Part shown: one piece after another, positions 727 to 64,000 of the stretch
Position numbering within the stretch: the first letter of the stretch is position 1
How the letters are laid out: each line of letters begins with the position of its first letter
Source of the DNA: an uncultured Bacillales bacterium
Lineage (GTDB): Bacteria > Bacillota > Bacilli > Tepidibacillales > Tepidibacillaceae
NCBI GenBank assembly: GCA_964551195.1
Contig: CAZKBI010000004.1
Span: 4,189 to 68,188, forward strand
Length of the DNA: 64,000 nt
Direction: 5' to 3'
Program-made: the position numbers and the translations under genes
The notes under the pieces: generated by a model
Database searches by the model: none
Told to the model about the DNA's origin: nothing
Seen by the model: only the letters and a program-made list of their open reading frames with translations

Positions 727-750
727 TCACCCCCGAATTAATTCCTAGTA

Positions 751-906
751 AAATAAAAAAGTGTGGACATATTACGCCCACACTCAATAATCAAAAGTTA
801 TATTAACCCAACGCCAGTAGCAGATAAGGTGAGAAGCGGGCGCTTCTGCTTTATTCAATATTTTATTTCACTTATGAAGTTTAACACGATAAATGTTAAC
901 TGTCAA
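751..906 (-). promoter_or_regulatory. infC operon promoter plus L20-type ribosomal-protein leader with attenuator terminator
   Basis: On the minus strand, TTGACA (906-901), a 17-nt spacer and TAAACT (883-878) lie just after the thrS stop. A GAAGCGCCCGCTTC hairpin follows, then a GTGTGGGCG...CCACAC stem (783-761) and a T-run (760-751) immediately before infC. This layout matches the L20-controlled infC leader of Bacilli; the assignment is from position and structure only. Confidence 0.55.
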
Positions 907-47195: not shown

Positions 47196-47234
47196 ATAAA
47201 AAAATAAAAGATAGAAGAGTTTCCTCTTCTATCT
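47196..47234 (-). terminator. Strong rho-independent terminator ending the Tad-like operon
   Basis: Minus strand: an 11-bp stem AGATAGAAGAG/CTCTTCTATCT (47234-47209) overlaps the TAG stop and is followed by TTTTATTTTTTT. Confidence 0.8.
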
Positions 47235-47720
47235 TAAAATCGACTTCCATTCATGCGCAGCAACCACAATCACATCTGAAACCGACCTCGTTAAACTGTA
47301 GTCGGGACGACCGGCATTGATTGTCACGATTACAGTCGGCTCTCTAATAAATATCTCAAAGCCAATGTTGGGTTTGCTTAAAAAGTATGGATAAACCGTG
47401 TTTAGATCATCAAAATACTCAACCGTATAATCAATCTGCTCCAACCAATAATAGTTGCGTAGTGGTAACAAATTATTACTAAGACTCATGTTCTCTTTCA
47501 GAATCCTACGGGCGGCTAAATCACCTTCCTGCTGGTTAAATACCAAATAACCATTCTTATAGTGTTCTGATAAGGTAAATTGTGCTGCCGCTGCTGCTGA
47601 CTCTTCGGCAATATACTTTAATAGATGAAGCTGTTCTTGGTGCTTATTATAATCGGCTTGAAAAGTTGTAAAAATTGCGAAAACGATAAATAAAGAAAAA
47701 CCAATAATATAAGACTTCAT
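47229..47720 (-). CDS. TadE-like / pseudopilin-like protein with N-terminal hydrophobic anchor
   Basis: 163 aa. The N-terminus MKSYIIGFSLFIVFAIFTTF is paralogous to that of the preceding gene. Its ATG overlaps the upstream stop (TAATG). The call rests on position after the pilin-like ORF. Confidence 0.45.
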   Translation of the reverse strand: MKSYIIGFSLFIVFAIFTTFQADYNKHQEQLHLLKYIAEESAAAAAQFTLSEHYKNGYLVFNQQEGDLAARRILKENMSLSNNLLPLRNYYWLEQIDYTVEYFDDLNTVYPYFLSKPNIGFEIFIREPTVIVTINAGRPDYSLTRSVSDVIVVAAHEWKSILR

Positions 47721-48130
47721 TAAGGCAGCAACTCACTGGGTACTTCGCCGCTAATGATATATTCGTAACTATTCGCCTGATCACTGATTCCGTAAAATAT
47801 ATTTGCAGCAATAACCTTATCAATCGGTATACCAACTTCAAAATAGATCATTTCTCTTTCATCAAAGTAATCTAAACGATATTTAGGAGTCCTTGTTGCT
47901 TCGATTCTTATATCAGATGGTTCAACTTTTAGCTTAGACGTTATTTGCATCCTTATCTCATCTAAATTTGATTGTTTAAAGTAACCGTCAGTTCTAGCTT
48001 TTTGTGCGGCATTATAGACAATATTATTAGTGGTCTGGATTTTATAATGATTAACCTGGTTAATTGACCATTGTAAAGGGAAAAAAATTAATACTAGGAA
48101 AACTGCAAAGCCAACTATATATTCTTTCAT
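47720..48130 (-). CDS. TadE-like / pseudopilin-like protein with N-terminal hydrophobic anchor
   Basis: 136 aa with N-terminus MKEYIVGFAVFLVLIFFPLQ. The size and position are typical of minor-pilin genes in Gram-positive Tad loci. Confidence 0.45.
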   Translation of the reverse strand: MKEYIVGFAVFLVLIFFPLQWSINQVNHYKIQTTNNIVYNAAQKARTDGYFKQSNLDEIRMQITSKLKVEPSDIRIEATRTPKYRLDYFDEREMIYFEVGIPIDKVIAANIFYGISDQANSYEYIISGEVPSELLP

Positions 48131-48145
48131 TACATCATCCTCATT

Positions 48146-48304
48146 TTATTCAGGGACGGTTATATTCTGAATCTCATTAAGCATTTTTCCAGCTATTGCA
48201 TCAGCTCCTGATTTTAAGCTGTTTGAATCAGCACCGAGTACGAGTGTATTAGCAATAAATACTCCTAAAAGTACAAGCGCAACAGTAACTATTAATTGTT
48301 TCAT
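48146..48304 (-). CDS. Unannotated 52-aa pilin-like / small hydrophobic protein (candidate Flp-type subunit)
   Basis: Below the ORF-track size cutoff. The ATG at 48304 lies 8 nt after AGGTGA and the stop is TAA at 48146-48148. The product is MKQLIVTVALVLLGVFIANTLVLGADSNSLKSGADAIAGKMLNEIQNITVPE. It occupies the slot where Tad loci carry flp, between tadC and tadE. Confidence 0.45.
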   Translation of the reverse strand: MKQLIVTVALVLLGVFIANTLVLGADSNSLKSGADAIAGKMLNEIQNITVPE

Positions 48305-48323
48305 TTATTTTATCACCTCTCAT

Positions 48324-49208
48324 CTAACTAATATAAAACTGAATATTATTAATCGCATCGATATAGTAAACAATAATCACAAAATTCAACATAATCACAA
48401 CACTCGTTGCAATCACACTAAAATAAATTAAGTTGCTTCTATTTTCATTAGCGATTATCCGATTCGTCTCACGCTCCTTTCTAATGACTTGAAGTAACAA
48501 GTCGATTTGAGTTACTAGCTCCTTAGTGGTTAAGTCATCCAGTCTACCTAAAACTGTAGCCAGTTCATGCGACACGCGTGTATCTATTGCATCCGCAAAT
48601 AAATTAATCGCTTCATTCATCTGGCCCAAATTCCATAATGAAATCATCTTACCCATAACCGCTTTAGTCTGATTAGCTGATTTATAAAGTGAATTCATTA
48701 TATAATCTGAACTGTACTCTTTGTAATTGCTAGTAACCGCAAGATTCTTTAAGTGTAATGTTAGTTTATATAATTCGAAATCAATACTTCTTTTACGTTT
48801 GTTTTCATAGAGCATTAGTATATATTTATATAGAGTTTTTCTGCCAAGAATTGTTTCTCGAGGGAAGAATACAAAATATAGGAAAATTGCAAAGATAAAC
48901 AGCATTTTTAAAGTTGAGCCACTACTTGTGCCTAACATTAACAATCCTAGTGTGATGGCAACAATTAACAAAATGTTATGAATAAGTAGATAATAGTTTG
49001 TATTAATTCTGATCTTAACCAATTTACTACCTGCATCAACATTGTCAGAAGTTAGTAATTTCTGATATCTATCTTTAATAACCGAAACAGCGTGTCTTGA
49101 ATTATCCACTGCTAACCGCTTTCTACCAAGGTAGCGCGAATTGAGAATTAAAACGGATAATAAGGACAGAATTGTAATTATGATTGAATAAATAATGTTT
49201 ATACTCAT
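48324..49208 (-). CDS. TadC-like platform protein (T2SS-F family, divergent)
   Basis: 294 aa with N-terminal, central and C-terminal TM segments around a helical cytoplasmic domain. It is the second of two tandem genes of this type after the ATPase. Confidence 0.55.
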   Translation of the reverse strand: MSINIIYSIIITILSLLSVLILNSRYLGRKRLAVDNSRHAVSVIKDRYQKLLTSDNVDAGSKLVKIRINTNYYLLIHNILLIVAITLGLLMLGTSSGSTLKMLFIFAIFLYFVFFPRETILGRKTLYKYILMLYENKRKRSIDFELYKLTLHLKNLAVTSNYKEYSSDYIMNSLYKSANQTKAVMGKMISLWNLGQMNEAINLFADAIDTRVSHELATVLGRLDDLTTKELVTQIDLLLQVIRKERETNRIIANENRSNLIYFSVIATSVVIMLNFVIIVYYIDAINNIQFYIS

Positions 49209-49215
49209 TTTATAT

Positions 49216-50196
49216 TTAAAAATCTCTTTTCTCTTTTTTTAGAAATACATAAATCCCACTGTTTATTACCATAAATATAAGAATCAATAGAAAAAATTTT
49301 AAACCAAGGCTGTTGAAGAATTGATATTCAATATATTTCGAAAAACCCAAACCTATTACCCCAACCATTGCATATACGCTTATCAAGTAAACTGCAGGCG
49401 TAACGTATTTAATCATAAATAGAGCTTCATTATTCTGTTGGCGATCCTTCTCATAAATACTGTTCATTGTTTTTGATTCTTCTAAAATATCTTCAAGTGC
49501 CTGAAAAATATTTTCTCCGTAAACCAAGCTATATTTTAAATTTTCTGATAATATCTCTGACAAGTTCGTTTTTAAGGCATAATTGAAATTATTAACTGAA
49601 TCTATTATTTCAGCATCTGAATCGGCTTGTTTTATTGCCAGACTTAATTTAAGTAACGCTTTCTGTGAGTGAGGTGACTTTGTCAAGCGAGGAATCGTTT
49701 GGTCAATCGCCTCATACATATTACAATGATTAATTCGATATTGACTTATCAGTTCAATTAATAATTGCTCCAGTTCATTGCTCCCCGCTGATCTAATCGT
49801 CTGTAATCTAAGCAATAGAATAAAATATGGTATAGCCCCAAATATAATAGAAATGAATATAATCATAAGAATACTAATGCCGGCTTGATAGAGAAATAAT
49901 GCTGTAGATAAGGCAATTGCAATTGAAAAGAACAGTATTATGTATAGATTTCTTTTTCTGCTAATACCATAACTTGTCTCTGCTAGTAGCAAAAACCTGC
50001 CGTAGTAGTTGTTCCTAAATGTTTTTTTACCACTAGATTGAAGTAGCTTATATCTGTTATAAATATTCATTTTGTTATAAAGCTGATGTAAAAATGGAAG
50101 ACAGGCCAGGATAAATCCAATTAATAAAAACAAAGAAAATCCGATATATACAAGCACACTTATAATTTCGTTCACCTTAATTACTCCTTCTTTCAT
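49216..50196 (-). CDS. TadB-like platform protein (T2SS-F family, divergent)
   Basis: 326 aa with the same topology. Its start overlaps the stop of the upstream ATPase (ATGA). Confidence 0.55.
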   Translation of the reverse strand: MKEGVIKVNEIISVLVYIGFSLFLLIGFILACLPFLHQLYNKMNIYNRYKLLQSSGKKTFRNNYYGRFLLLAETSYGISRKRNLYIILFFSIAIALSTALFLYQAGISILMIIFISIIFGAIPYFILLLRLQTIRSAGSNELEQLLIELISQYRINHCNMYEAIDQTIPRLTKSPHSQKALLKLSLAIKQADSDAEIIDSVNNFNYALKTNLSEILSENLKYSLVYGENIFQALEDILEESKTMNSIYEKDRQQNNEALFMIKYVTPAVYLISVYAMVGVIGLGFSKYIEYQFFNSLGLKFFLLILIFMVINSGIYVFLKKEKRDF

Positions 50197-51620
50197 CGAC
50201 CATAAAACGGCCTAGTAATATTTTCTCCGACCATCGGATTTTTCTGCGCCAATCTGGCAAGTTCATTCTTGAAAGTCAAAAACGCAGCACTCTCTTCTTG
50301 CATAGCAATCTCCTCTTTATCAATACCAATGTCATATTTGTAATGCCAATCGTCTGTTTGGTAATTATACTTAACAATCTGATGGACGGTAATTTGTCTA
50401 GCAGCAGTATCGTAACGTAATTCATATACGCCCTTCAATCGTTTTTTCGAACGGTCCTGTAATTGGATAAATTCATACAAATAATGATATCCCTTGGCTA
50501 GCTTAACCATCGTAGATTGCAAGTCGCCACCAAATTTTGCAATAATTTCATTGGCAGCATCGTATACAAAATCTGCAGCATCTGTAGAATGAAATGTGCT
50601 TTTAACCCTACGGGTACCCTTTGTAGTTATTTTTAACGCTAAATTTAGAGCGACCGCATCACGCGCTTCAGCAAGTATGAAATAATCAGCATCCGAACGC
50701 ATCAGGGACTTTGTAATCTCATTAAGTCTTTCACCGTCGGCAATGATTTGTATTATGGGCGCATCCGGCATTATTTGATGAAGTGGGATCTCTGGATCAG
50801 TCTCAATTAGGACACCCTCCAAACTTCTATCCTCATAACTTTGCCAAGTCTCAAGAAACGTCGTTTTTCCACTCCTCACCGGCCCTATAAAGTTAACATT
50901 ATAACCAATCTTGATTTTAGCTTTAAGTAAGGGAATTATTTCCTCGGGAATAGTTCCCCGTCTTGCCTGCTCCTCAAAAGTTAAATGTTCAATAATATAT
51001 TTTCGAAATATAATTGTTGGTTCCTTTGCATCTTCAAAAATAGTAATACGTGTGCCATCTAGCATGTATACCTCAGCGTATTTATTGCTTAAATGAATCT
51101 CCGGATTGCGTAATAGGAGTGCTTTCCTCAATTGCTTTAAACGCTCCGCAGTTATTCGTTGTTGTTGGAGTTGCATCTTTCCATTTATTAAAAAAAATAT
51201 TTTTTCGCCAATGATTTTGGCAGAGCTACTTTCTTTTAAAATCTTCCATGGGGCAATAGCCGCTAAACCCCAGTTTTCATGAAATATTGCTGTAGTAAGA
51301 TTTTCATACCAAGATGGATACCAGGCGTTCTGTAAATTTCGTTTTTTTAAGTAAATTTCTATTTTAGAAATAAAATAATTCGACTCCGCCGAATAACCAA
51401 TAATTGCCCGCTTTTGATAATGTAACAATTGATCGGCTGTAGAATTATCCTTCCCCGATTCCATATCCCAACCCTCTAAAAAATTCTTGCTAACTTCTTT
51501 ACAGAGTTTCTGAAAACTTAACAGCTTCTGACTGTTGCTTAAGTTCTTTTCAACCTCTTCTTGCTTTGCTTCAGCCTCTTCTAAATATTTATTTAAAGAA
51601 AAACGAGTTTCTATCATCAC
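50193..51620 (-). CDS. Divergent CpaF/VirB11-like secretion ATPase (second ATPase of the locus)
   Basis: 475 aa. Has Walker A GPVRSGKTT, an Asp-box-like LIETDPEI, and a Walker B-like ADYFILAEARD. TTKGTRRVKSTFHS replaces the canonical His box. It sits in the canonical tadA position (tadZ-tadA-tadB-tadC). Confidence 0.65.
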   Translation of the reverse strand: MMIETRFSLNKYLEEAEAKQEEVEKNLSNSQKLLSFQKLCKEVSKNFLEGWDMESGKDNSTADQLLHYQKRAIIGYSAESNYFISKIEIYLKKRNLQNAWYPSWYENLTTAIFHENWGLAAIAPWKILKESSSAKIIGEKIFFLINGKMQLQQQRITAERLKQLRKALLLRNPEIHLSNKYAEVYMLDGTRITIFEDAKEPTIIFRKYIIEHLTFEEQARRGTIPEEIIPLLKAKIKIGYNVNFIGPVRSGKTTFLETWQSYEDRSLEGVLIETDPEIPLHQIMPDAPIIQIIADGERLNEITKSLMRSDADYFILAEARDAVALNLALKITTKGTRRVKSTFHSTDAADFVYDAANEIIAKFGGDLQSTMVKLAKGYHYLYEFIQLQDRSKKRLKGVYELRYDTAARQITVHQIVKYNYQTDDWHYKYDIGIDKEEIAMQEESAAFLTFKNELARLAQKNPMVGENITRPFYGR

Positions 51621-52780
51621 ATTCCACCTAGACTGTTCATCTTGCGTCTAATTAATCCTTCCCTTGTTTCAAGACGATAGGGTAGTTTTATTTGCATAGA
51701 AATAATCTTACATAAATAATCAATTTGGTTATTATAATTTTTTAGACCATAATGTAGTAGTGTTTTTTGTTCTATCTCTGCTTTCCATCCATAAAAGTCC
51801 GCATGGGGAACCACGGTTGCTAGGATTGTCCCGTACAAACTGCCTAATTGCTGACTAGTATACATAAAATCAGAGTGTATATATTTATTAACTACCAACA
51901 TGAATTGTTTAACATCAATGCCTAAGCCGTTTAGCACCTGAGATTCAATTCTTTTATACTTTTTGCGTACCGCCTCTTGCTGAGTTACGACTAAATATCT
52001 GGTTTTAGCTAGTTGAATTGAAGCTATGGCCAAGCCAGAATCAATCTCGCCCCCAGCATCAATCAACACCAGGTCAAACTTGTTAGCTGCCATTTTTATT
52101 AAGTCTTTTATGTGCTTGGGATGAAACAGCTTGGCATCCGGAGAATATTTTACCCCAGGCAAGATGTATAGGCTCTCGACTTCTTTTATACAGGCATTCA
52201 CTAATTCATCTTCTTCCAAAATATTGTTGAATAATTTAATTTTCAGGTTATCAATACCTGTTTCTAGGTCATTCTTCACATACTCCATACTCGGATTACT
52301 GTTTAGACAGAGTAACCCAACACTTACATCAGTGTGCTTAGCAAGCATTTCAGCGACGCTATGAGACAACATCGTCGTTCCAACTTTGTTATCTGCACCA
52401 AAAAAAGTTATTACATTATCCAATTCATTTGCTTCAGAGGACCTTATTTTTAAAATTTTATCAACTATTTTCTCTTCGGTAAGCTTGCTGGAGATTAATT
52501 CAATCCCACTTAACCGACAGATGACTTTCATATTATTCAGTATATTAATATCGTAATCATAAGAATAGATAAAAAATACTTTGCTCTTTTTATTATTCAT
52601 ATTTTTATTTCCCGCAACTGTTGCTTGAACTTTTTCATAACTAATCATTTTTTCAGATATTACAATAATTTCCGCGTCTTCATGACCACTGATTACATCT
52701 GTCTCTTCCACTTCAATATTGCTCATTGTCCGTAATATATTAGCTACTTTACTATTTTCCGCTATGATCAGAATTTTCAT
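51617..52780 (-). CDS. TadZ/CpaE-like protein (atypical receiver domain + degenerate ParA/MinD ATPase domain)
   Basis: 387 aa. The N-terminal receiver-like fold lacks the acidic pocket (IIAEN, IIVISEKM). The central region FFGADNKVGTTMLSHSVAEMLA is a deviant P-loop, followed by a ParA-like LVLIDAGG block. Confidence 0.6.
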   Translation of the reverse strand: MKILIIAENSKVANILRTMSNIEVEETDVISGHEDAEIIVISEKMISYEKVQATVAGNKNMNNKKSKVFFIYSYDYDINILNNMKVICRLSGIELISSKLTEEKIVDKILKIRSSEANELDNVITFFGADNKVGTTMLSHSVAEMLAKHTDVSVGLLCLNSNPSMEYVKNDLETGIDNLKIKLFNNILEEDELVNACIKEVESLYILPGVKYSPDAKLFHPKHIKDLIKMAANKFDLVLIDAGGEIDSGLAIASIQLAKTRYLVVTQQEAVRKKYKRIESQVLNGLGIDVKQFMLVVNKYIHSDFMYTSQQLGSLYGTILATVVPHADFYGWKAEIEQKTLLHYGLKNYNNQIDYLCKIISMQIKLPYRLETREGLIRRKMNSLGGM

Positions 52781-53451
52781 TATTCAACCCCCTCTACATA
52801 TAAAATAATAATTTTATCCCCAACCCTAACAATCTCAGTTAATTGTGCTATTTCATCTAAATCTAAAACTACAGAAACTTCGGCAATTATTCCTGTGCCA
52901 TCCATTCGATCTCTTTTACCCGTGCTGACTATTTCCCGATTCATACTATCTTTCACATATGCAACCTCAGTTTCAAAAAGGACTCCGCTTGTGCTTTCTT
53001 GTTGACCAAATCTATAAAGATACACTTTATCCTGTCTTCGCAAGGTATTAGGCATCGAATAGATCCAATCACTCGGTATTCTAATAATATATTGATCTAC
53101 TGCTAATTTGACCTCAGTTGTAGAGAAGTATCTAGGATGGAGTAAGCTTCCTTGCGGTATATAGGAAATCGATTCCAATCCAACAATTTCACTAATATCG
53201 TCAATAGCACCAGTAAAAATCTTGCTTTTTTCAAAACTCTGGTAAGTAAGTAACGACTCTTCAATTAGTACTCCCCGATCGATATCTTGGTTTAACACCA
53301 ATCTCTCCTCATACAGAAAATGCTCGCGTCCAGCTGTTTCCCAGAACCAAATAAGAGTTAACACTATCACGATTAGAACTAGACCAAGTGCTGGTATGAG
53401 ATAACTTAAAAAACTTCTTAACTTGCTTCTAATATTATTTAATTCCCGCAA
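52780..53451 (-). CDS. CpaB/RcpC-like protein (N-terminal TM + SAF domain)
   Basis: 223 aa with one TM segment, then a SAF-like segment (VLNQDIDRGVLIEESLL...IVGLESISYIPQGSLLHPRYF). The TTG start follows a GAAGGTGA RBS. Confidence 0.6.
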   Translation of the reverse strand: MRELNNIRSKLRSFLSYLIPALGLVLIVIVLTLIWFWETAGREHFLYEERLVLNQDIDRGVLIEESLLTYQSFEKSKIFTGAIDDISEIVGLESISYIPQGSLLHPRYFSTTEVKLAVDQYIIRIPSDWIYSMPNTLRRQDKVYLYRFGQQESTSGVLFETEVAYVKDSMNREIVSTGKRDRMDGTGIIAEVSVVLDLDEIAQLTEIVRVGDKIIILYVEGVE

Positions 53452-53455
53452 AAAA

Positions 53456-55156
53456 TCACCTTCTTAAGAAACTAGATTTATATTCTTTACGTGAGCTATT
53501 AACTTTAGCTCTATCCATCACAATCAGATCTGCAGCTATTCCGCTTAAAGCACCTTTAAGTAGCTCACCAACATTAGTATATTCATAGAGAATATCTCCG
53601 TTAAAAGTTGCACGATGGATATGTGATAGTTCGATGTTTGGACAGAAATGAATTGGTGCAAAATCAAATAATTTCAATAATTCTCGCTTGGGCACACTTT
53701 CTGTCCAGTTATTTAATATTAGTTTAACCTTTACACCCTCTTTCACTAACTCACACAACTTGGATAAGCGACGTAAATTCTGTGCAATATTAATTAATAT
53801 TGGATCTATAACCACTAGTAAACAATCTACATTCTTTAAAGCATTTTCAATTGCCGGGTGCTCTATGTAATTTCCAACGTCGATTAATGAAATACTATTC
53901 TTGCGTGATGAGTAAAGAAGATTCAACATCATCATGTCATCCCAGTTCTCCTCCTTTATTAAGGGCCGTCGGGGATCTACGAGAGTCCACGTAATCCCTT
54001 TAGCTGAGTACATTTTATTTTTTAATAGTGGTTTTCCTTCATACAGTTCATGGACCGTACTATAAAAGCCTTGTTCCTCCTTGATTAGATTCCCTAGTCT
54101 TTCTACACCAAGATAATCAAAGAGATATGGACTAAAAGGTATTTCAACAACATTAGGAACTATACTTAATTCACTAATATATTTTGCTAAGTTAATTGTT
54201 ATAAAAGTTGAGCCGGCACACTTTGAAAGTGAGCAGATCATGACCTGCGATATATTTTCTACCAAACTGAACTGATCCATTTCTGGATTTGCAATAATTT
54301 CTTCTTTAGTCGATTTATCGTTTAGCAGCTTTGTGTGGTCATGGTAATAAGTATTTGCAATTTCTAGCTCTCTTTGTACATCTGCGACATTCTGATAGCG
54401 GGTTTCTGGATCATACATAAGTGATTTATTTACGATCGAATATATTATGATTGGTAGGTCATTACGAAGGTGTTGAAGGGGTTTTCGTACACTGTAGTAG
54501 TGCTTTCCTCCACTAAATAGATAATAGAGTAAGGCACCAAGAGAATAAATATCAGATCGATGATCAGTATCTCTTAACCCAAGTTGTTCTGGTGCAGCAT
54601 ACCTCACTGTCCCTAATTGTGCTGTATCAAGTTCTCCTTCCAGAATATAATCCTTGGCAATTCCGAAATCGATTAATTTAATGTTATCTTGGTCGTCTAT
54701 TAAAACATGCTCAGGTTTGAGATCTCGATAGATAACAGGTGCTGGTAACTCATTATGTAAATAATTGAACACCTCACATAACTGCATTGCATATTTTATA
54801 ATCTTTATCTCAGAAAGAACTTGTCCACTCTCTACAATCTCTTGTAAACTGTTACCCTCGATATAATCCATAACTAAATAGGAACGCCTAATATCTTTTT
54901 CGTAATAGTAGTCAATAATTTTCGGCAGGTATGGGTGTTCAAGTTTTGCTAAGAGTTTAGCCTCTCTAATAAAATTGTCCCCCTCCATTCGCTTATTCTC
55001 TACCTCTTTAATAGCCCAACACTTGCCTTCTATTCTCAAATCTTCGGCATAATACACTATTCCCATAGCACCATGGCCAATTATGGAGGTTATTTTATAT
55101 CTTTTATTAAAGATCTCACCAATTGTTAGTACACCTCGATTATCAATAACCATCAC
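53456..55156 (-). CDS. Hanks-type Ser/Thr protein kinase fused to a degenerate ParA/TadZ-like domain
   Basis: Residues about 15-270 form the kinase: GHGAMG Gly-loop, AIK lysine, YRDLKPEH catalytic loop, DFG, and APE in GTVRYAAPE. Residues about 303-545 are ParA/MinD-like: VMICSLSKCAGSTFITINLA, SLIDVG, CLLVVIDP, KLILNNW. Confidence 0.8.
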   Translation of the reverse strand: MMVIDNRGVLTIGEIFNKRYKITSIIGHGAMGIVYYAEDLRIEGKCWAIKEVENKRMEGDNFIREAKLLAKLEHPYLPKIIDYYYEKDIRRSYLVMDYIEGNSLQEIVESGQVLSEIKIIKYAMQLCEVFNYLHNELPAPVIYRDLKPEHVLIDDQDNIKLIDFGIAKDYILEGELDTAQLGTVRYAAPEQLGLRDTDHRSDIYSLGALLYYLFSGGKHYYSVRKPLQHLRNDLPIIIYSIVNKSLMYDPETRYQNVADVQRELEIANTYYHDHTKLLNDKSTKEEIIANPEMDQFSLVENISQVMICSLSKCAGSTFITINLAKYISELSIVPNVVEIPFSPYLFDYLGVERLGNLIKEEQGFYSTVHELYEGKPLLKNKMYSAKGITWTLVDPRRPLIKEENWDDMMMLNLLYSSRKNSISLIDVGNYIEHPAIENALKNVDCLLVVIDPILINIAQNLRRLSKLCELVKEGVKVKLILNNWTESVPKRELLKLFDFAPIHFCPNIELSHIHRATFNGDILYEYTNVGELLKGALSGIAADLIVMDRAKVNSSRKEYKSSFLRR

Positions 55157-55160
55157 CCCC

Positions 55161-56282
55161 TTAACTTATTAAAGTTCTAACTCGATACTCAGTTGTCGCA
55201 AGTTTAATCCTGTCCCCCTCTCCTATTGGATACAACTTATTTGCATCTAATTCAACCCCATTTAGAAAAGAACCATTCTTTGAATCTAAATCCTTAATTA
55301 AATAACCATTAATATCTCTAATTATTTCGAGATGCACTCTTGAAATTACATTGGAATCTTCATAATGATTTACTATGTTTTTGTTTCTTCCAATGATGAA
55401 ATTTGGCTGATCTAAATCTATTCTTTCCGTCTGTCCATCGTGATCTTTTTCTAAATAAAACAAAGGAACAGCCTTTAGCAGATGACGAGTCTCGGCTAGT
55501 TTTTCTTCCTTATCTTCATCTTCGCTAACATTAATTAAAAGGTCTTTTCCAACATAGCTACTAATCGTTTCATGTCTACCCTTCGAAAAAGAAATTCGCG
55601 GCCAATTAAAGATCCTGTTCCTTTTTTCGTTATCACTTACTCTATTGTTCTCTGCTTTATCCGATGTTACAATCGTCTCTTTCCCGTCTACACTTGATTC
55701 ACCGTGGTTTTTACTGTCAACTCTTCTATAAAGTTCTTCTATCGTAAATTCGCAACTATCAAAATAATCTATAACATTATTATAAAAATTTAGTTCTACC
55801 CCATGACTCTCTTTAAAAATATCGATAAACAATTGTTTAAATTCATTCGCCATACTGGCTTCTTTATTAAGCTCTTTTAATGGCAAGTAGATTAAGTGTG
55901 GTTTATTTTTGTCGATATCAATATAAATTAGCGGTAATTTCATTATGTATTTATTAACATCTAATAAGTACTTGCTACTATTTCTTATTACATTGATTAT
56001 TTCTAGATAAACTCCTCGCATCAGGTCCCCACCATATTGCTCCGTCATTAAGTAATTATTTAATAATTTATAGCCTCTCACATCATAATAGAACTTAATA
56101 TTTAAATTGAATTCTTCAAGTACTAAAGGCACATGTCCTAACAAACTATTTGCGCTCAACATTTCTGCTTGAACTCCTATTATCTCTTCAGCTCTTAGCC
56201 CTTCCGCCCTATCAATCACCAGGCTATTATAATCCCCGTTTAAATAATTTATGCGCAGGTTATATACTTCTCCGACCAACAA
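55161..56282 (-). CDS. FHA-domain protein with uncharacterised N-terminal domain
   Basis: The C-terminal roughly 90 aa form an FHA domain (FIIGRN ... ISRVHLEI ... DLDSKNGSFLNG). I could not assign the N-terminal roughly 200 aa. The TTG start (56282 or 56279) follows an AGGGGGAG RBS embedded in the 3' end of cpaF. Confidence 0.8.
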   Translation of the reverse strand: MLVGEVYNLRINYLNGDYNSLVIDRAEGLRAEEIIGVQAEMLSANSLLGHVPLVLEEFNLNIKFYYDVRGYKLLNNYLMTEQYGGDLMRGVYLEIINVIRNSSKYLLDVNKYIMKLPLIYIDIDKNKPHLIYLPLKELNKEASMANEFKQLFIDIFKESHGVELNFYNNVIDYFDSCEFTIEELYRRVDSKNHGESSVDGKETIVTSDKAENNRVSDNEKRNRIFNWPRISFSKGRHETISSYVGKDLLINVSEDEDKEEKLAETRHLLKAVPLFYLEKDHDGQTERIDLDQPNFIIGRNKNIVNHYEDSNVISRVHLEIIRDINGYLIKDLDSKNGSFLNGVELDANKLYPIGEGDRIKLATTEYRVRTLIS

Positions 56283-57504
56283 AAGCTCCCCCTAACCCCG
56301 CTTGCTTTAGCTTGTCTATCCCTAGAAGGCTGTTGCCAGTTGCTTGCAGCTCACCAAAGAGTCCACCCTGCTCATCTAATCCAGTCTCAACGAAACGATA
56401 TAGTCTATTTAATTGAATTTCATTATTAACCATTCCAGTAATCTCGCTTATTTCAATTATTCGACGCGTGTTATCCCTTAATTTCGCCAAATGAATAATT
56501 ATGTCTATCGCCGAACTAATTTGTTTGCGAATGGCAACAATCGGAATATTAGCTCCCCTTAGAACCATTACCTCTAACCTACTCAGCATATCCTCGGCAC
56601 TGTTCCCGTGGCCTGTAGAGATAGAGCCATCATGGCCTGTATTCATTGCTTGTAGCATATCTAATGCTTCATGGCCCCGCACTTCTCCAACAACGATGCG
56701 ATTGGGTCGCATTCTAAGGGAGGCTCTAATTAAATCGCTGATTGTTATCTCGCCCTTGCCCTCAGTATTCGCATTGCGAATCTCTAGCCTGACAAGATTC
56801 TCAATATTCGTTATTTGTAGCTCTGCAGAATCTTCAATTGTAATAATTCTTTCTTTATCTGGGATAAAATTTGACAGCACATTTAAGAAGGTCGTTTTGC
56901 CAGAGCCTGTTCCACCGCTGATAAAAATATTGTATTTTGCCTTTACCAGCAGATCTAGAAAAATGGCAGCTTCTTCTGACAATGTATTATTTTCAATTAA
57001 ATGGTCAATTGTAAGTGGGTTCTTAGGGAATTTACGAATTGTCATTGTTGGACCATCCAATGCGAGGGGAGGAAGGACGATATTTACTCGGGACCCGTCC
57101 TTCATTCTTGCATCTACAATAGGGGAGGATTGGTTTACTACTCTATTTACCTTAGAAACAATCATCTGAATTATATCTTCTAGCCGTTCTTTACTTTCAA
57201 ACTCTACTCTTGTTTTTTTTATTTCACCATTCTTTTCAACAAAAACTTGATTATACCCGTTAACCATTATCTCGGTTATCTCATCTTTTTCAATTAAGGG
57301 CTGTAGAACATCATATCCTCTAAACGAATTAAAAATGCTATCCGCTAAATCGATTTTCTCCTTTGTCGATAGGACAATTGCGGTTGCGTATTCGAACACT
57401 TTCTCTTCAATATATAGACGAATCTCTTCATCAGTAACTAGGTATAAATCATTTATCTGCTCACGTATCTGATTTCTTAATAACTTGCTTCTTTCAACAT
57501 TCAT
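56260..57504 (-). CDS. CpaF/TadA-family type IV pilus/secretion ATPase (canonical)
   Basis: 414 aa with Walker A GGTGSGKTT, Asp box IITIEDSAEL, Walker B RIVVGEVRG, and His box MNTGHDGSISTGH. Confidence 0.9.
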   Translation of the reverse strand: MNVERSKLLRNQIREQINDLYLVTDEEIRLYIEEKVFEYATAIVLSTKEKIDLADSIFNSFRGYDVLQPLIEKDEITEIMVNGYNQVFVEKNGEIKKTRVEFESKERLEDIIQMIVSKVNRVVNQSSPIVDARMKDGSRVNIVLPPLALDGPTMTIRKFPKNPLTIDHLIENNTLSEEAAIFLDLLVKAKYNIFISGGTGSGKTTFLNVLSNFIPDKERIITIEDSAELQITNIENLVRLEIRNANTEGKGEITISDLIRASLRMRPNRIVVGEVRGHEALDMLQAMNTGHDGSISTGHGNSAEDMLSRLEVMVLRGANIPIVAIRKQISSAIDIIIHLAKLRDNTRRIIEISEITGMVNNEIQLNRLYRFVETGLDEQGGLFGELQATGNSLLGIDKLKQAGLGGAFVGRRSI

Positions 57505-57652
57505 TTCCCTATTCCTATCTACATAAATCTAATTACAAATTATAGTTTTATTGTAAAACTTTGACATCGTTCTACTATAATAAATCATAAATTAATATTT
57601 GTCACTAGATAAAAACAACTTATTTCAAATAAATATTATCCGCTAATGGACA

Positions 57653-57686
57653 ACAAAAAACGACACGGCAGCTAGCTACCGTGTCG
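57653..57686 (-). terminator. Rho-independent terminator upstream of the Tad-like operon (ends the preceding gene)
   Basis: Minus strand: CGACACGG...CCGTGTCG stem (57686-57661) followed by TTTTTTG. Confidence 0.75.
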
Positions 57687-57711: not shown

Positions 57712-58023
57712 TCAAGATGGTAGATTACAAATTACGATTGTAAGGATTGAACTTATTAATAAAAAAAAGATTGCAACAGCAATAAATAAGGTGGAAACAT
57801 TTAAAATAGCAAGATTTTTAATCTCACCCTTTCCTTCTCTGAAAAATTTAATTAACACCATTGTTAAGCCAACAATTAAAAAAATGATTGAAATATAAAA
57901 CAAGATATTTACGAAACCTACTACCGGCACATTAAAATACCATGCATAAAGACGTAGACTAACAAATATTACGCCTGTTAATAAAATAACTTTAAGAACG
58001 AATATGAATAAATTTCGCTTCAT
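57712..58023 (-). CDS. Small membrane protein, unknown function
   Basis: 103 aa with three hydrophobic segments; no motif recognised. Confidence 0.4.
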   Translation of the reverse strand: MKRNLFIFVLKVILLTGVIFVSLRLYAWYFNVPVVGFVNILFYISIIFLIVGLTMVLIKFFREGKGEIKNLAILNVSTLFIAVAIFFLLISSILTIVICNLPS

Positions 58024-58183: not shown

Positions 58184-58894
58184 TTATTGAGCTTTTATTA
58201 GCTCATATAGCTCCTCCGTCTTGGCAGCTTCCTCATAGTTGATAATATAAAAATCTTCTTGATCACGTAGTAGGAGAAAAGGACCCTGATCCGACACCAA
58301 AAATAGTTTTCCCTGTCCATACTCCTCAAGTTTAAAATTTCCTTTTAATGTATTACCAGCACTATAACCATTTGTTCTTGTAATTATTCGTGGGATTTGC
58401 TCAATTAATTGAATGTCCTGTAACTCATTTAAAGGGATAGTTGTTCCATACATTCCGCTAATTATAATTTCCTGTGAATCAACGACAACCTCTGTCACAC
58501 CACCACCAAATAAAACAAGGCCAAAAACAAATACGCCAATTACTAATAGGATTACCACAACAATTATTGCGTTTTTGCGCTGATTTTCTTTGTTCAGATT
58601 GAAACGTTGTGCGTAAAATATCATAAATACGCTATATATAATTATCATAACAAAAACAACCAACGCTGAAGTATTATAACCTGCGTAAGCAAAGAGGAAT
58701 GCAACTAGGGAAATAGCAGCCATTATAAACATGCTATTACTCATGAAATTACGCAATCCTTCAATATCTACCTCTTGTTTTTTCTCTTTCGACATCGTGT
58801 TATAACCAGCTATTAGCCAGTCCCATTTAAAATACTTTAAAGCCCCACCTAATAAGACAAACATAAAAATAAACGCAAGTATTAAGTACATCAT
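58184..58894 (-). CDS. Membrane protein, DUF3784-like N-terminus with PH-like C-terminal domain
   Basis: The WLIAGYNTMSKEKKQEVD motif is typical of DUF3784. It has four TM segments and a soluble C-terminal beta-rich domain. Confidence 0.5.
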   Translation of the reverse strand: MMYLILAFIFMFVLLGGALKYFKWDWLIAGYNTMSKEKKQEVDIEGLRNFMSNSMFIMAAISLVAFLFAYAGYNTSALVVFVMIIIYSVFMIFYAQRFNLNKENQRKNAIIVVVILLVIGVFVFGLVLFGGGVTEVVVDSQEIIISGMYGTTIPLNELQDIQLIEQIPRIITRTNGYSAGNTLKGNFKLEEYGQGKLFLVSDQGPFLLLRDQEDFYIINYEEAAKTEELYELIKAQ

Positions 58895-63355: not shown

Positions 63356-63441
63356 TGGTGCCGATGGCCGGACTCGAACCGGCATGGAAATTATCCGTCG
63401 CATTTTGAGTGCGGTGCGTCTGCCAGTTCCGCCACATCGGC
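63356..63441 (-). tRNA. tRNA-Leu (anticodon CAA)
   Basis: The reverse complement folds as a cloverleaf: acceptor GCCGATG/CATCGGC, loop CT-CAA-AA, long variable arm, GGTTCGAGTCC T-arm, encoded CCA. Confidence 0.9.
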
Positions 63442-63460
63442 AAAGTGTTTTTATAACAAA

Positions 63461-63537
63461 TGGCGCGCCCTGCAGGATTCGAACCTGCGACCTTCTGATT
63501 CGTAGTCAGACACTCTATCCAGCTGAGCTAAGGGCGC
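63461..63537 (-). tRNA. tRNA-Arg (anticodon ACG)
   Basis: GCGCCCTTAGCTCAGCTGGATAGAGT...; anticodon loop CT-ACG-AA; GGTTCGAATCC T-arm; encoded CCA. Confidence 0.9.
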
Positions 63538-63545
63538 AAAGTAAA

Positions 63546-63634
63546 TGGTGCCGAGAACCGGAATCGAACCGGTACGGTAGTCACCTACCGCAGGATTTTA
63601 AGTCCTGTGCGTCTGCCAATTCCGCCACCCCGGC
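63546..63634 (-). tRNA. tRNA-Leu (anticodon UAA)
   Basis: GCCGGGGTGGCGGAATTGGCAGACGC...; loop CT-TAA-AA; long variable arm; encoded CCA. Confidence 0.9.
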
Positions 63635-63646
63635 ACATTATTTTAT

Positions 63647-63721
63647 TGGAGGCGGCAACCGGATTTGAACCGGTGAATAAAGGTTTTGCAGACCTTCGCC
63701 TTACCACTTGGCTATGCCGCC
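63647..63721 (-). tRNA. tRNA-Cys (anticodon GCA)
   Basis: GGCGGCATAGCCAAGTGGTAAGGC...; loop CT-GCA-AA; encoded CCA. Confidence 0.9.
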
Positions 63722-63755
63722 ATTAGATAGATATTGATACGGCACTCAAAAAAAT

Positions 63756-63830
63756 TGGAGCGGACGAGGAGATTCGAACTCCCGACCCTCGCCTTGGCAA
63801 GGCGATGCTCTACCACTGAGCCACGTCCGC
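63756..63830 (-). tRNA. tRNA-Gly (anticodon GCC)
   Basis: GCGGACGTGGCTCAGTGGTAGAGC...; loop TT-GCC-AA; encoded CCA. Confidence 0.9.
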
Positions 63831-63844
63831 ATATTAAATTAAAA

Positions 63845-63918
63845 TGGCAGGGGTGGTAGGAATCGAACCCACACTAACGGTTTTGGAGACCGCTGTTCTG
63901 CCATTGAACCACACCCCT
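63845..63918 (-). tRNA. tRNA-Trp (anticodon CCA)
   Basis: AGGGGTGTGGTTCAATGGCAGAAC...; loop CT-CCA-AA; encoded CCA. Confidence 0.9.
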
Positions 63919-63922
63919 AAAA

Positions 63923-64000
63923 TGGTGGTGGGGGCAGGATTTGAACCTGCGAAGCTTCCGCAGCGGATTTACAGTCCGCCCCATTTGACCACTTTGGTAC
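63923..64000 (-). tRNA. tRNA-Tyr (anticodon GUA), 5' end cut by window edge
   Basis: The 3' part ...GGCGGACTGTAAATCCGC has loop CT-GTA-AA, a long variable arm, GGTTCAAATCC and CCACCA. About 7 nt of the 5' acceptor lie outside the window. Confidence 0.85.

Follow-up and report, generated by a model that had tools for sequence, protein, structure and literature searches.

Tad pili play important roles in adhesion, colonisation and predation; how they are regulated at the machine level is poorly understood. To our knowledge, a single bifunctional CpaF serves as motor in the Tad systems investigated to date. Here we analysed a locus in which Tad-like genes are combined with genes for a Hanks-type Ser/Thr kinase, an FHA protein and a second ATPase. 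It comprises 11 consecutive open reading frames (ORFs), g1 to g11, at positions 47229-57504 on the minus strand of a 64,000-nucleotide stretch of DNA from an uncultured Bacillales bacterium (GenBank assembly GCA_964551195.1, contig CAZKBI010000004.1, positions 4,189 to 68,188), which is called the window below. An earlier note, prepared from this sequence alone, had suggested that the locus carries a phospho-switch serving as an assembly checkpoint; as an argument by analogy, this idea appears reasonable.

In the type VI secretion system (T6SS) pathway, phosphothreonine-dependent recruitment is proposed to trigger assembly. PpkA, the kinase of this pathway, spans the membrane as a receptor kinase and has a periplasmic domain; the module also includes the PP2C phosphatase PppA. 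An FHA domain has also been linked to Tad motors. KilF of Myxococcus xanthus is a fusion of an FHA domain with CpaF, more FHA proteins are encoded in kil clusters, and the authors drew an analogy to the T6SS and proposed a phospho-signalling input to contact-dependent assembly; the word "kinase" is absent from their paper (PMC8460266). Class III CpaF orthologues, which are mostly betaproteobacterial, likewise possess an N-terminal FHA domain (PMC12019362). In view of these two reports, the statement of the earlier note that its ATPase-FHA-kinase module belongs to no characterised Tad system known was too strong with regard to the FHA link. Proteins composed of DUF6382 and FHA domains are known as TseJ and TsfJ of the type VII secretion systems (T7SSs) e and f, and Tad loci adjoin T7SSg/h in Paenibacillus and Acetivibrio, an adjacency left unexplained by the authors (PMC11217815). 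The Arn proteins, which regulate the archaellum of Sulfolobus, affect expression, and their genes are never part of the filament locus (PMC4858521).

Our analysis showed that g1 to g11 form a single operon, which encodes a machine of the cytoplasmic membrane following the Tad (type IVc or archaeal-type) plan, with g4 to g11 as its conserved core. The genes are tightly packed: 23 nt are shared by g1 and g2 and a single nucleotide by g4/g5 and by g10/g11 (at 52780 and 47720, respectively), g5/g6 and g6/g7 overlap by 4 nt (51617-51620 and 50193-50196), and the remaining intergenic gaps measure 4-19 nt. The earlier description of twelve packed minus-strand ORFs was correct with respect to packing and overlaps but not with respect to the number, which is 11; its own list of genes also names 11. 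The terminators said to flank the block were found as hairpins with T-tracts. The upstream one (57661-57686, minus strand) is the intrinsic terminator of the upstream gene and defines the 5′ boundary of the operon; its hairpin (57686-57661) has an 11-pair stem with 7 G-C pairs and is followed by TTTTTTGTTG. The intrinsic terminator at the 3′ end (47208-47235, minus strand) overlaps the stop codon of g11, and its hairpin (47235-47208) has a 12-pair stem followed by TTATTTTTTT. As nearly all genes of the window are located on the minus strand, co-direction carries little weight, and the call of a single operon is based on the tight spacing and the terminator pair rather than on orientation.

To assign the products to families, ten of them were scanned against Pfam and NCBIfam (E ≤ 0.1) and g9 was scanned against Pfam only (E ≤ 0.05). 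The first gene, g1 (56260-57504, minus strand), encodes a canonical CpaF/TadA-type hexameric ATPase of 414 amino acids, which matched T2SSE (1.3e-56) and TIGR03819 (2e-87). Its best solved relative is CpaF of Caulobacter (PDB 8rkd, 3.8e-102, residues 24-391), and it lacks an N-terminal FHA domain or disordered region. The protein is 58% identical to the CpaF protein of a canonical Tad locus of Paenibacillus (L003; loci compared with the window are designated by L numbers). The CpaF/TadA-type ATPase expected of a Tad system is represented by g1, with g6 as a second, divergent member. The second gene, g2 (55161-56282, minus strand), encodes a TseJ-like soluble protein of 373 amino acids with an N-terminal DUF6382 domain (1.1e-17) and an FHA domain at the C-terminus (4.2e-13; both Pfam). 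The phosphothreonine-pocket residues GR, SxxH and NG are present in g2 and invariant in 8 homologues (IGRN, ISR[VE]H, SKNG[ST]xLN). DUF6382 has no sequence relatives in the PDB. No transmembrane (TM) segment was found in the g2 protein of the window. A two-helix membrane hairpin is present in the linker of g2 homologues from Vulcanibacillus (L013:4959-6275) and from the loci L006 (4967-6301) and L011 (618-1886). The hairpin form is TsfJ-like (T7SSf), and in the window clade the hairpin is lost from g2, leaving the soluble TseJ-like form.

The third gene, g3 (53456-55156, minus strand), encodes a cytoplasmic protein in which a Hanks Ser/Thr kinase domain (residues 1 to ~290) is followed by a TadZ-type ParA/MinD domain (residues ~300-566). 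The kinase domain matched Pkinase with 4.7e-44 and retains the glycine-rich loop, Lys, the Glu of helix C, the Asp of the RD motif, DFG, APE and activation-loop threonines. Neither a sensor domain nor a confident TM segment was found in g3; in a simple hydropathy scan, the only peak was a borderline one at residues 439-457 within the ParA-like domain, which we interpret as a buried strand and not as a helix in the membrane. The C-terminal 270 residues have no Pfam match. A profile of 15 sequences of this region identified the ParA-family ATPase PDB 3ea0 (4.7e-5), and an hhalign comparison with the ParA domain of g5 gave a probability of 96.3% (E 1.7e-9, 223 columns). The P-loop has the sequence LSxxAG[AS]TF without a Lys; the NK/NR motif is retained, as is the Asp of Walker B. 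By these sequence features, g3 combines a kinase with a pseudo-ATPase domain of the TadZ type, which takes the place of a sensor domain. The fusion of a kinase with a ParA-like domain had been recognised in the earlier note. Its assignments of a canonical CpaF, an FHA protein, a CpaB/SAF protein, a TadZ-like protein and a second, divergent ATPase were also confirmed by the profile searches.

The core starts with g4 (52780-53451, minus strand), a CpaB/RcpC-like protein with one N-terminal TM helix (residues 18-36) and an SAF domain. The g4 protein itself matched SAF with 5.9e-4 (20.8 bits versus a cutoff of 21), and within its family SAF was found in 11 of 13 members (best value 7e-8) and ChapFlgA in 8 of 13. 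Further matches were obtained to TIGR03177 cpaB (2e-4, under the cutoff) and to FlgA (3frn, 4e-5). With its TM helix and SAF domain, g4 possesses the features of CpaB/RcpC in Tad systems. The g5 protein (51617-52780, minus strand) is TadZ-like and consists of an N-terminal domain and a ParA/MinD domain. Its family profile matched PDB 3ea0 (2e-11) and MinD (1hyq, 2.7e-6); PF13614 AAA_31, the domain recorded for TadZ of L003, did not match g5 (E ≤ 0.1). The P-loop of g5 is atypical (FFGADxKVGTT), and the Lys of GK[ST] is missing in the alignment. An atypical Walker A motif and a position upstream of the ATPase gene are the features of TadZ/CpaE, and both are found in g5. The g6 protein (50193-51620, minus strand; 475 amino acids) is a divergent secretion ATPase of the archaeal GspE2/CpaF branch. 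Its T2SSE match (7e-6) barely exceeded the Pfam cutoff; the best solved relative is archaeal GspE2 (PDB 2oap, 8.4e-10), followed by CpaF (5e-5), and the identity to CpaF of L003 is ~23-25%. Walker A (G..GK), the Asp-box (E273/E277), Walker B (E318/R320) and the His-box (H344) are invariant down to 20% identity, which suggests that g6 is probably active.

The two following genes encode polytopic membrane proteins, g7 (49216-50196, minus strand) in the position of TadB and g8 (48324-49208, minus strand) in the position of TadC. The g7 family could be connected to T2SSF through the homologous protein of L006: hhalign aligned the two over 280 columns with a probability of 98.8% (E 7.7e-17), and the L006 protein passes the T2SSF gathering score (26.5 versus 25.2 bits, E 7e-6). 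In the case of g8, whose family is unassigned, only position and TM topology speak for a TadC-like protein. Its pattern of TM segments (3-21/74-92/97-115/265-283) is nearly superimposable on that of TadC of L003 (3-21/89-107/111-129/268-286), and an hhalign comparison with g7 was marginal (13%, E 2e-3).

The last three genes encode small proteins. The g9 product (48146-48304, minus strand) is a leaderless, Flp-sized hydrophobic protein of 52 amino acids. Members of its family have 46-57 amino acids, occur in one or two, often two tandem, copies and start with MK and a hydrophobic helix. The g10 product (47720-48130, minus strand) belongs to an orphan family and is leaderless and pilin-shaped, with a long N-terminal helix and a small sheet. 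Its AlphaFold2 model, calculated with an alignment of 58 sequences, has a predicted local distance difference test (pLDDT) score of 86.5 and a predicted template modelling score of 0.72 and contains helices at residues 2-48 and 53-67 and three strands. The third protein, g11 (47229-47720, minus strand), has the same N-terminal helix as g9 and g10, with a TM segment at residues 4-22. Both g10 and g11 start similarly (MKxYIxGF). By hhalign, g9, g10 and g11 are joined through the N-terminal helix only (~20-26 residues); the alignment of g10 with g11 (probability 80.7%) is limited to the first 20 residues. A relationship of this kind also exists between major and minor pilins.

The distribution of the operon was surveyed by scanning species-representative genomes with the g6 profile, which yielded 54 loci, and by mapping all window products onto them. 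A near-universal unit across the loci is g4-g5-g6-g7-g8-g9-g10-g11, with g9 present once or twice. It occurs in uncultured Bacillales metagenome-assembled genomes (MAGs; g6 identity 75-84%), in Vulcanibacillus modesticaldus (66%) and Tepidibacillus, in Paenibacillus in two types (55% and 25-28%), and in Clostridia (41-51%), namely Ruminiclostridium papyrosolvens, R. sufflavum, Family XIII/Anaerovoracaceae and Oscillospiraceae. An exhaustive HMMER search with the g7 profile gave 430 cluster representatives at 50% identity (E ≤ 1e-3). Pfam detects at most weak ATPase and weak SAF matches in the core, and the six other core proteins have none.

The genes upstream of the core differ between the loci. 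CpaF, DUF6382-FHA and the kinase fusion are all present in the window, in three metagenome loci (L001/L002 and L006) and in five species loci (L008-L011 and L013). The kinase fusion alone precedes the core in L012 and in 16 Paenibacillus loci of type 2, i.e., in 17 loci without CpaF and FHA, so that it leads the core in ~22 of the 54 species loci. Co-occurrence of the kinase fusion with CpaF, which the earlier note had proposed to survey, was seen in 5 species loci, and 17 have the fusion without CpaF. None of the CpaF, FHA, kinase and ParA-like genes is present upstream in at least 12 loci with sufficient upstream sequence. In three loci, the ParA-like domain is part of a kinase-less protein: proteins from UBA Firmicutes MAGs (L034:184-1581, L035:6473-8008 and L046:6550-8016) carry the g3-type ParA domain behind an unrelated N-terminal region of ~250 amino acids, for which no confident Pfam domain was found (shown for L035). 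Among the surveyed loci, neither FHA nor CpaF was seen without the other, nor either of them without the kinase. These observations show that the real unit is the core from the SAF protein to the pilin-like proteins, which is widespread in Bacillota; the kinase fusion goes with the core, which in Bacillales it usually precedes, and CpaF plus FHA form an optional layer, added in front in the lineage of the window. The grouping of ATPase, FHA protein and kinase as a proximal module, as made in the earlier note, could not be maintained, since the kinase belongs with the core.

Where the full set is present, the order CpaF-FHA-kinase-core is retained down to 64-65% CpaF identity (L006 and L013). 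L006 is an intermediate, with the same architecture and with a second ATPase and a platform protein closer to canonical Tad. Full-length homologues of the g3 fusion share 45-76% identity with it in metagenomes and ~30% in numerous species of Paenibacillus. A third, more divergent kinase-led module was observed in Paenibacillus sp. FSL P2-0322 (L064; CP150243.1, 10001-20519). It encodes, in this order, a kinase, an SAF protein, two short ParA-like proteins, a membrane-anchored ATPase of 611 amino acids, a membrane protein of 694 amino acids and four small proteins with the N-terminal helix. The 611-amino acid ATPase is matched by the g6 profile (2.5e-11), and the only Pfam matches in this module are those of the kinase and the SAF protein. 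In Paenibacillus sp. SI8 (L003; GCA_040812295.1, 10001-21602), a canonical Tad locus with genes for TadZ, CpaF, two T2SSF proteins, Flp1_like, TadE, DUF5702 and an A24 peptidase is flanked by a homologue of the kinase::ParA-like fusion and by a DUF6382-FHA gene. The latter gene, of 482 amino acids, runs past the end of the collected stretch.

The explanation that we favour is a composite one: a machine on the Tad plan to which a kinase is docked via its ParA-like domain, with a second motor gated by the FHA protein and with unprocessed subunits. We regard this composite as probable, if only by a little, and any single step of the phospho-relay outlined here as much less certain. The kinase g3 would be tethered by its ParA-like domain to the machine, either to the TadZ-like protein or to the platform. 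Because ParA/MinD proteins act as dimers, a heterodimer of the C-terminal domain of g3 with g5 is the obvious candidate for this tether. The kinase would phosphorylate a threonine, either its own or one of a component of the machine; this mark would be read by the FHA domain of g2, whose DUF6382 domain would recruit or release CpaF (g1). The machine could then use g6 as resident motor and g1 as a phospho-gated second motor, for example for extension versus retraction or for two working modes, and might assemble a fibre or a pseudopilus from unprocessed subunits. The latter is suggested by the leaderless small proteins and by the finding that no prepilin peptidase was detected nearby. The gene order, which agrees with that of monoderm Tad loci (TadZ-CpaF-TadB-TadC-Flp-TadE in L003), counts for a machine on the Tad plan, as do the connection of g7 to T2SSF via L006, the TadC-like TM topology of g8, the pilin-shaped model of g10 and the N-terminal helix common to g9, g10 and g11. 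Coupling of a kinase to the machine is favoured because it recurs, in loci of the L008-L013 type, in Paenibacillus type 2, in the variant L064 and in the canonical Tad locus L003. Further points in favour are the invariant FHA pocket of g2, the remaining kinase motifs and activation-loop threonines kept in g3, the joint occurrence of FHA and CpaF with the kinase, and the precedents of FHA-CpaF coupling. A more far-reaching version, in which the core represents a distinct class of type IV filament-like machine of the Bacillota with leaderless, peptidase-independent subunits and phosphorylation control of two motors, is a tentative proposal that we consider rather unlikely. In this version, the core of the Bacillales would have recruited a kinase with a TadZ-type docking domain, which would employ an FHA adaptor to exchange the motor on one platform for canonical CpaF or to add the latter as a second one.

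Several results weigh against the favoured explanation. Concerning the subunits, the G/XXXXEY motif of Flp prepilins is missing in the g9 family, there is no in-frame start farther upstream, and g9 had no Pfam match, including Flp1_like; for comparison, Flp of L003 contains the sequence ...EEGLG/TLEI. A Foldseek search of the PDB with the g10 model gave nothing significant (best E 0.18), g10 has no Pfam domain, including TadE, none of its 99 homologues has one, and g11 also lacks a Pfam match, including TadE. Prepilin peptidase (A24), PP2C phosphatase and secretin domains were not found among the operon products in the Pfam/NCBIfam scans, in agreement with the earlier note. Nor did tblastn, a search of limited sensitivity with the A24 protein of L003 as its single query, reveal an A24 peptidase in the window of 64 kb or in the comparison loci covered, with 10 kb on either side of the 54 species loci. 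Given that neither the prepilin signal nor a peptidase was found, the machine can be called a filament system only tentatively, and as the operon encodes no phosphatase, reversibility of the proposed switch is unexplained.

The platform proteins pose a similar difficulty. For g7, no Pfam or NCBIfam match was obtained, T2SSF was found by Pfam in 0 of 25 and 0 of 67 homologues, PDB profile searches were empty, and hhalign against an alignment of two TadB/TadC sequences gave a probability of 0.6%. With the AlphaFold2 model of g7 (all-helical, pLDDT 79), Foldseek returned only noise resembling G-protein-coupled receptors. The assignment of g7 as a T2SSF-type platform protein is thus one by transitive homology only, via the L006 protein as intermediate. 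In the case of g8, neither Pfam nor NCBIfam gave a match. TadB-, TadC-, pilin- and TadE-like proteins, which the earlier note had called recognisable, were consequently matched by no profile in g7 to g11, and of the families that it had proposed to place by profile and structure searches, the ATPases and the CpaB-like protein could be placed directly and the platform protein g7 only transitively.

Further reservations concern the kinase and its association with the core. In the catalytic loop of g3 (54680-54700 region), the sequence YRDLKPEH deviates from HRDLKPxN by an exchange of Asn for His, so that the kinase of the window clade could be weak or serve only as a scaffold. The exchange is confined to the window and its three nearest relatives (L008, L009 and L010/L002), and ~20 more distant homologues keep the Asn. 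In most species the core occurs without CpaF and FHA, and in two species (L065 and L066) the kinase fusion is an orphan, which shows that its adjacency to the core is not obligatory. Finally, no substrate threonine was identified, and all support for the phospho-relay derives from sequences and models.

Among the alternatives, the one that survives best dispenses with a pilus and instead assumes a short pseudopilus or piston exporter, or a wall-spanning assembly device, for envelope proteins such as SLH-anchored proteins and hydrolases, gated by the kinase and the FHA protein. Type II secretion shows that a chassis of this kind is able to export proteins, and the small proteins are leaderless, with no A24 peptidase found by the single-query tblastn search in the 10 kb on either side of the 54 species loci. 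Support also comes from the genes that follow the core in other species. An SLH-domain protein is encoded downstream of the core in many loci of Clostridia and Paenibacillus (e.g., L035:14803-16056, L018:14688-16040 and L015:14504-16873), and in Paenibacillus FSL H7-0331 an NlpC/P60 and SleB-type wall hydrolase takes the place of the SLH protein. However, the operon of the window contains no SLH protein, hydrolase or obvious substrate gene, and members of the g9 family resemble a mature Flp subunit in size and shape. We consider this exporter unlikely.

A second alternative assumes that two separate systems adjoin each other, with the core working on its own ATPase and the CpaF-FHA-kinase cassette serving a Tad pilus or a T7SS elsewhere in the genome. 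This is slightly less likely. The higher identity of g1 (58%) than of g6 (only ~23-25%) to canonical-Tad CpaF, the flanking of a canonical Tad locus by the kinase and DUF6382-FHA genes in SI8, the usual absence of CpaF and FHA from the core loci and the occasional orphan kinase all agree with a cassette acting in trans, as do the occurrence of DUF6382-FHA proteins as TseJ/TsfJ of T7SSe/f and the location of Tad loci next to T7SSg/h (PMC11217815). Arguments against it are that the genes overlap or lie 4 nt apart, that one terminator pair encloses all 11 genes, and that the order CpaF-FHA-kinase-core is held down to 64-65% CpaF identity. Moreover, the ParA domain of g3 is homologous to g5, the kinase directly heads the core in the 17 CpaF-less loci, and the window contains no ORF of the size of EssC, the largest being dnaE with 1060 amino acids.

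The weakest alternative, in which g3 is a pseudokinase scaffold that is bound by the FHA domain independently of phosphorylation in a purely structural contact, as EssC FHA domains bind to the pseudokinase EssB in T7SSb, could draw on the Asn-to-His exchange in the window and its closest relatives, the lack of a phosphatase in the operon and the precedent of phospho-independent FHA-pseudokinase contacts in T7SSb, but it is improbable in view of the retained Lys, Glu, RD Asp, DFG and APE of g3, the Asn of its distant homologues and the fully conserved FHA pocket of g2, which differs in this respect from the EssC FHA domains (PMC11217815).

Three other assignments were considered and dropped. 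A function in anti-phage defence was considered; PADLOC matched the generic kinase domain only (PD-T4-6 and mad6) and no other product, and the fusion of the kinase to a ParA domain and its conserved Tad-like neighbours spoke against this reading. A relation of g10 to VirB8 and type IV secretion was dropped, as CagV/VirB8 appeared with a Foldseek probability of 0.03-0.04, no VirB4 or VirD4 was present, and the adjacency to TrbL_4 is confined to two Ruminiclostridium loci. In these two loci (L021:3173-8025 and L042:1775-5823), the core is preceded by genes for TrbL_4 and for a reverse transcriptase of the group II intron type. A link to the competence pilus was dropped as well; a ComEA-like gene (SLBB plus HHH) precedes the core in a single locus, that of an Anaerovoracaceae MAG (L029:7950-8600).

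As to the surroundings of the operon, the leader between the upstream terminator and g1 (57505-57660, minus strand) is AT-rich and contains two sigma-70-like hexamer pairs, at 57605-57577 and 57567-57539, identified by consensus matches. Promoter-like hexamers are no commoner than in shuffled sequence (54 found versus 50 expected), and an Rfam scan detected no riboswitch or leader RNA upstream of g1 and no Rfam family at the locus. The block is AT-richer than its flanks, as had been claimed before, with a GC content of 0.31-0.375 compared to 0.38-0.45 in the dnaE and queG flanks. Recent horizontal acquisition was rejected as the cause of the low GC content, since the block and its flanks (queG...dnaE) are syntenic in the related metagenome contigs L001/L002 and the relatives share 62-84% protein identity; the synteny among close relatives argues for a resident locus and not for a recent island. 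Two genes between the upstream terminator and a HAD-hydrolase gene, encoding a 103-amino acid membrane protein (57712-58023) and a 236-amino acid DUF3784 membrane protein (58184-58894, both minus strand), are AT-rich like the operon and syntenic in L001; no connection to the operon was found for either of them. An ORF of 222 codons on the plus strand (56501-57169) is located antisense and entirely inside g1 and most likely represents a chance ORF opposite a conserved gene. Seven tRNA genes are clustered at the right end of the window (63359-64000, minus strand), the last one being cut by the edge, and a ribosomal protein L20 leader is located at 749-857 (minus strand).

If the favoured explanation is true, Tad-type machines would be gated post-translationally by Ser/Thr phosphorylation with the kinase as a physical part of the machine, a second motor would be recruitable to the same platform, and a filament or pseudopilus might be formed from subunits that need no prepilin peptidase. 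The large family to which the operon belongs is unannotated in the libraries searched and has members in the cultured and tractable genera Paenibacillus, Ruminiclostridium and Vulcanibacillus.

Among the known systems closest to the operon are the Tad/Flp loci of monoderms (Bifidobacterium breve tad, Eubacterium rectale and L003), with which it shares the order (CpaB)-TadZ-ATPase-two membrane proteins-small subunit-minor subunits, the lack of a secretin, an ATPase of the CpaF branch and a ParA-type TadZ with atypical P-loop. It differs from them in that the identity of the core ATPase to CpaF is only ~23-25%, the T2SSF profile does not match the platform proteins, and the subunits lack a G/XXXXEY leader, with no A24 peptidase found nearby and no Flp1_like, TadE or DUF5702 protein detected. 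In addition, the operon contains a second ATPase, a kinase and an FHA protein. The system is Tad-like and not a Tad system proper: the ATPase, TadZ and CpaB features are present, the Flp prepilin signal is missing, no peptidase was found, and g7/g8 and g10/g11 are without a direct family match. Coupling of FHA domains to Tad is already known and the parts have precedents; it is their combination that is undescribed in the open-access literature found. This literature contained no report of a Hanks kinase inside a Tad-type operon, of a kinase::TadZ-type fusion, of two CpaF-branch ATPases in one Tad-like operon, of a leaderless subunit set or of this core family, and no paper on the exact architecture, in line with what the earlier note had supposed.

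With the Kil system and class III CpaF, the operon shares the coupling of an FHA domain to a Tad motor. In those systems, which belong to diderms with a secretin, a single ATPase carries the FHA domain as an N-terminal fusion, whereas here it resides on a separate DUF6382 protein encoded after CpaF, the operon includes a kinase fused to a TadZ-like domain, and two ATPases are present. We know of no kinase gene in Kil or FHA-CpaF clusters. The presence of two paralogous hexameric ATPases with one platform resembles PilB (extension) and PilT (retraction) of type IVa pili; here, however, both are paralogues of the CpaF branch and not PilB and PilT, and a division of labour between them is hypothetical.

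The similarity to the PpkA-Fha1-PppA pathway of the Pseudomonas aeruginosa T6SS lies in a Hanks kinase and an FHA scaffold encoded together with a secretion machine. It is an analogy only, as the kinase described here is cytoplasmic and has no sensor domain, no phosphatase was found in the operon, and the chassis is unrelated. Regarding T7SSe/f, g2 has the architecture of TseJ and its hairpin-containing homologues that of TsfJ, and kinases (TseD) accompany the FHA proteins there as well. The genomic context of TseJ/TsfJ is different: the window has no EssC-size ORF, neither a WXG100 nor a YukD-like domain was found among the operon products, the neighbouring genes of the operon are Tad-like, CpaF instead of an FtsK-type protein is the partner ATPase, and the T7SS kinases are membrane proteins with extracellular domains. 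With the Sulfolobus archaellum, where ArnA (FHA), ArnB and Ser/Thr kinases are involved, the operon shares a phosphorylation- and FHA-based input on an archaeal-type filament; unlike the Arn proteins, the kinase-FHA module is encoded here inside the operon of the machine.

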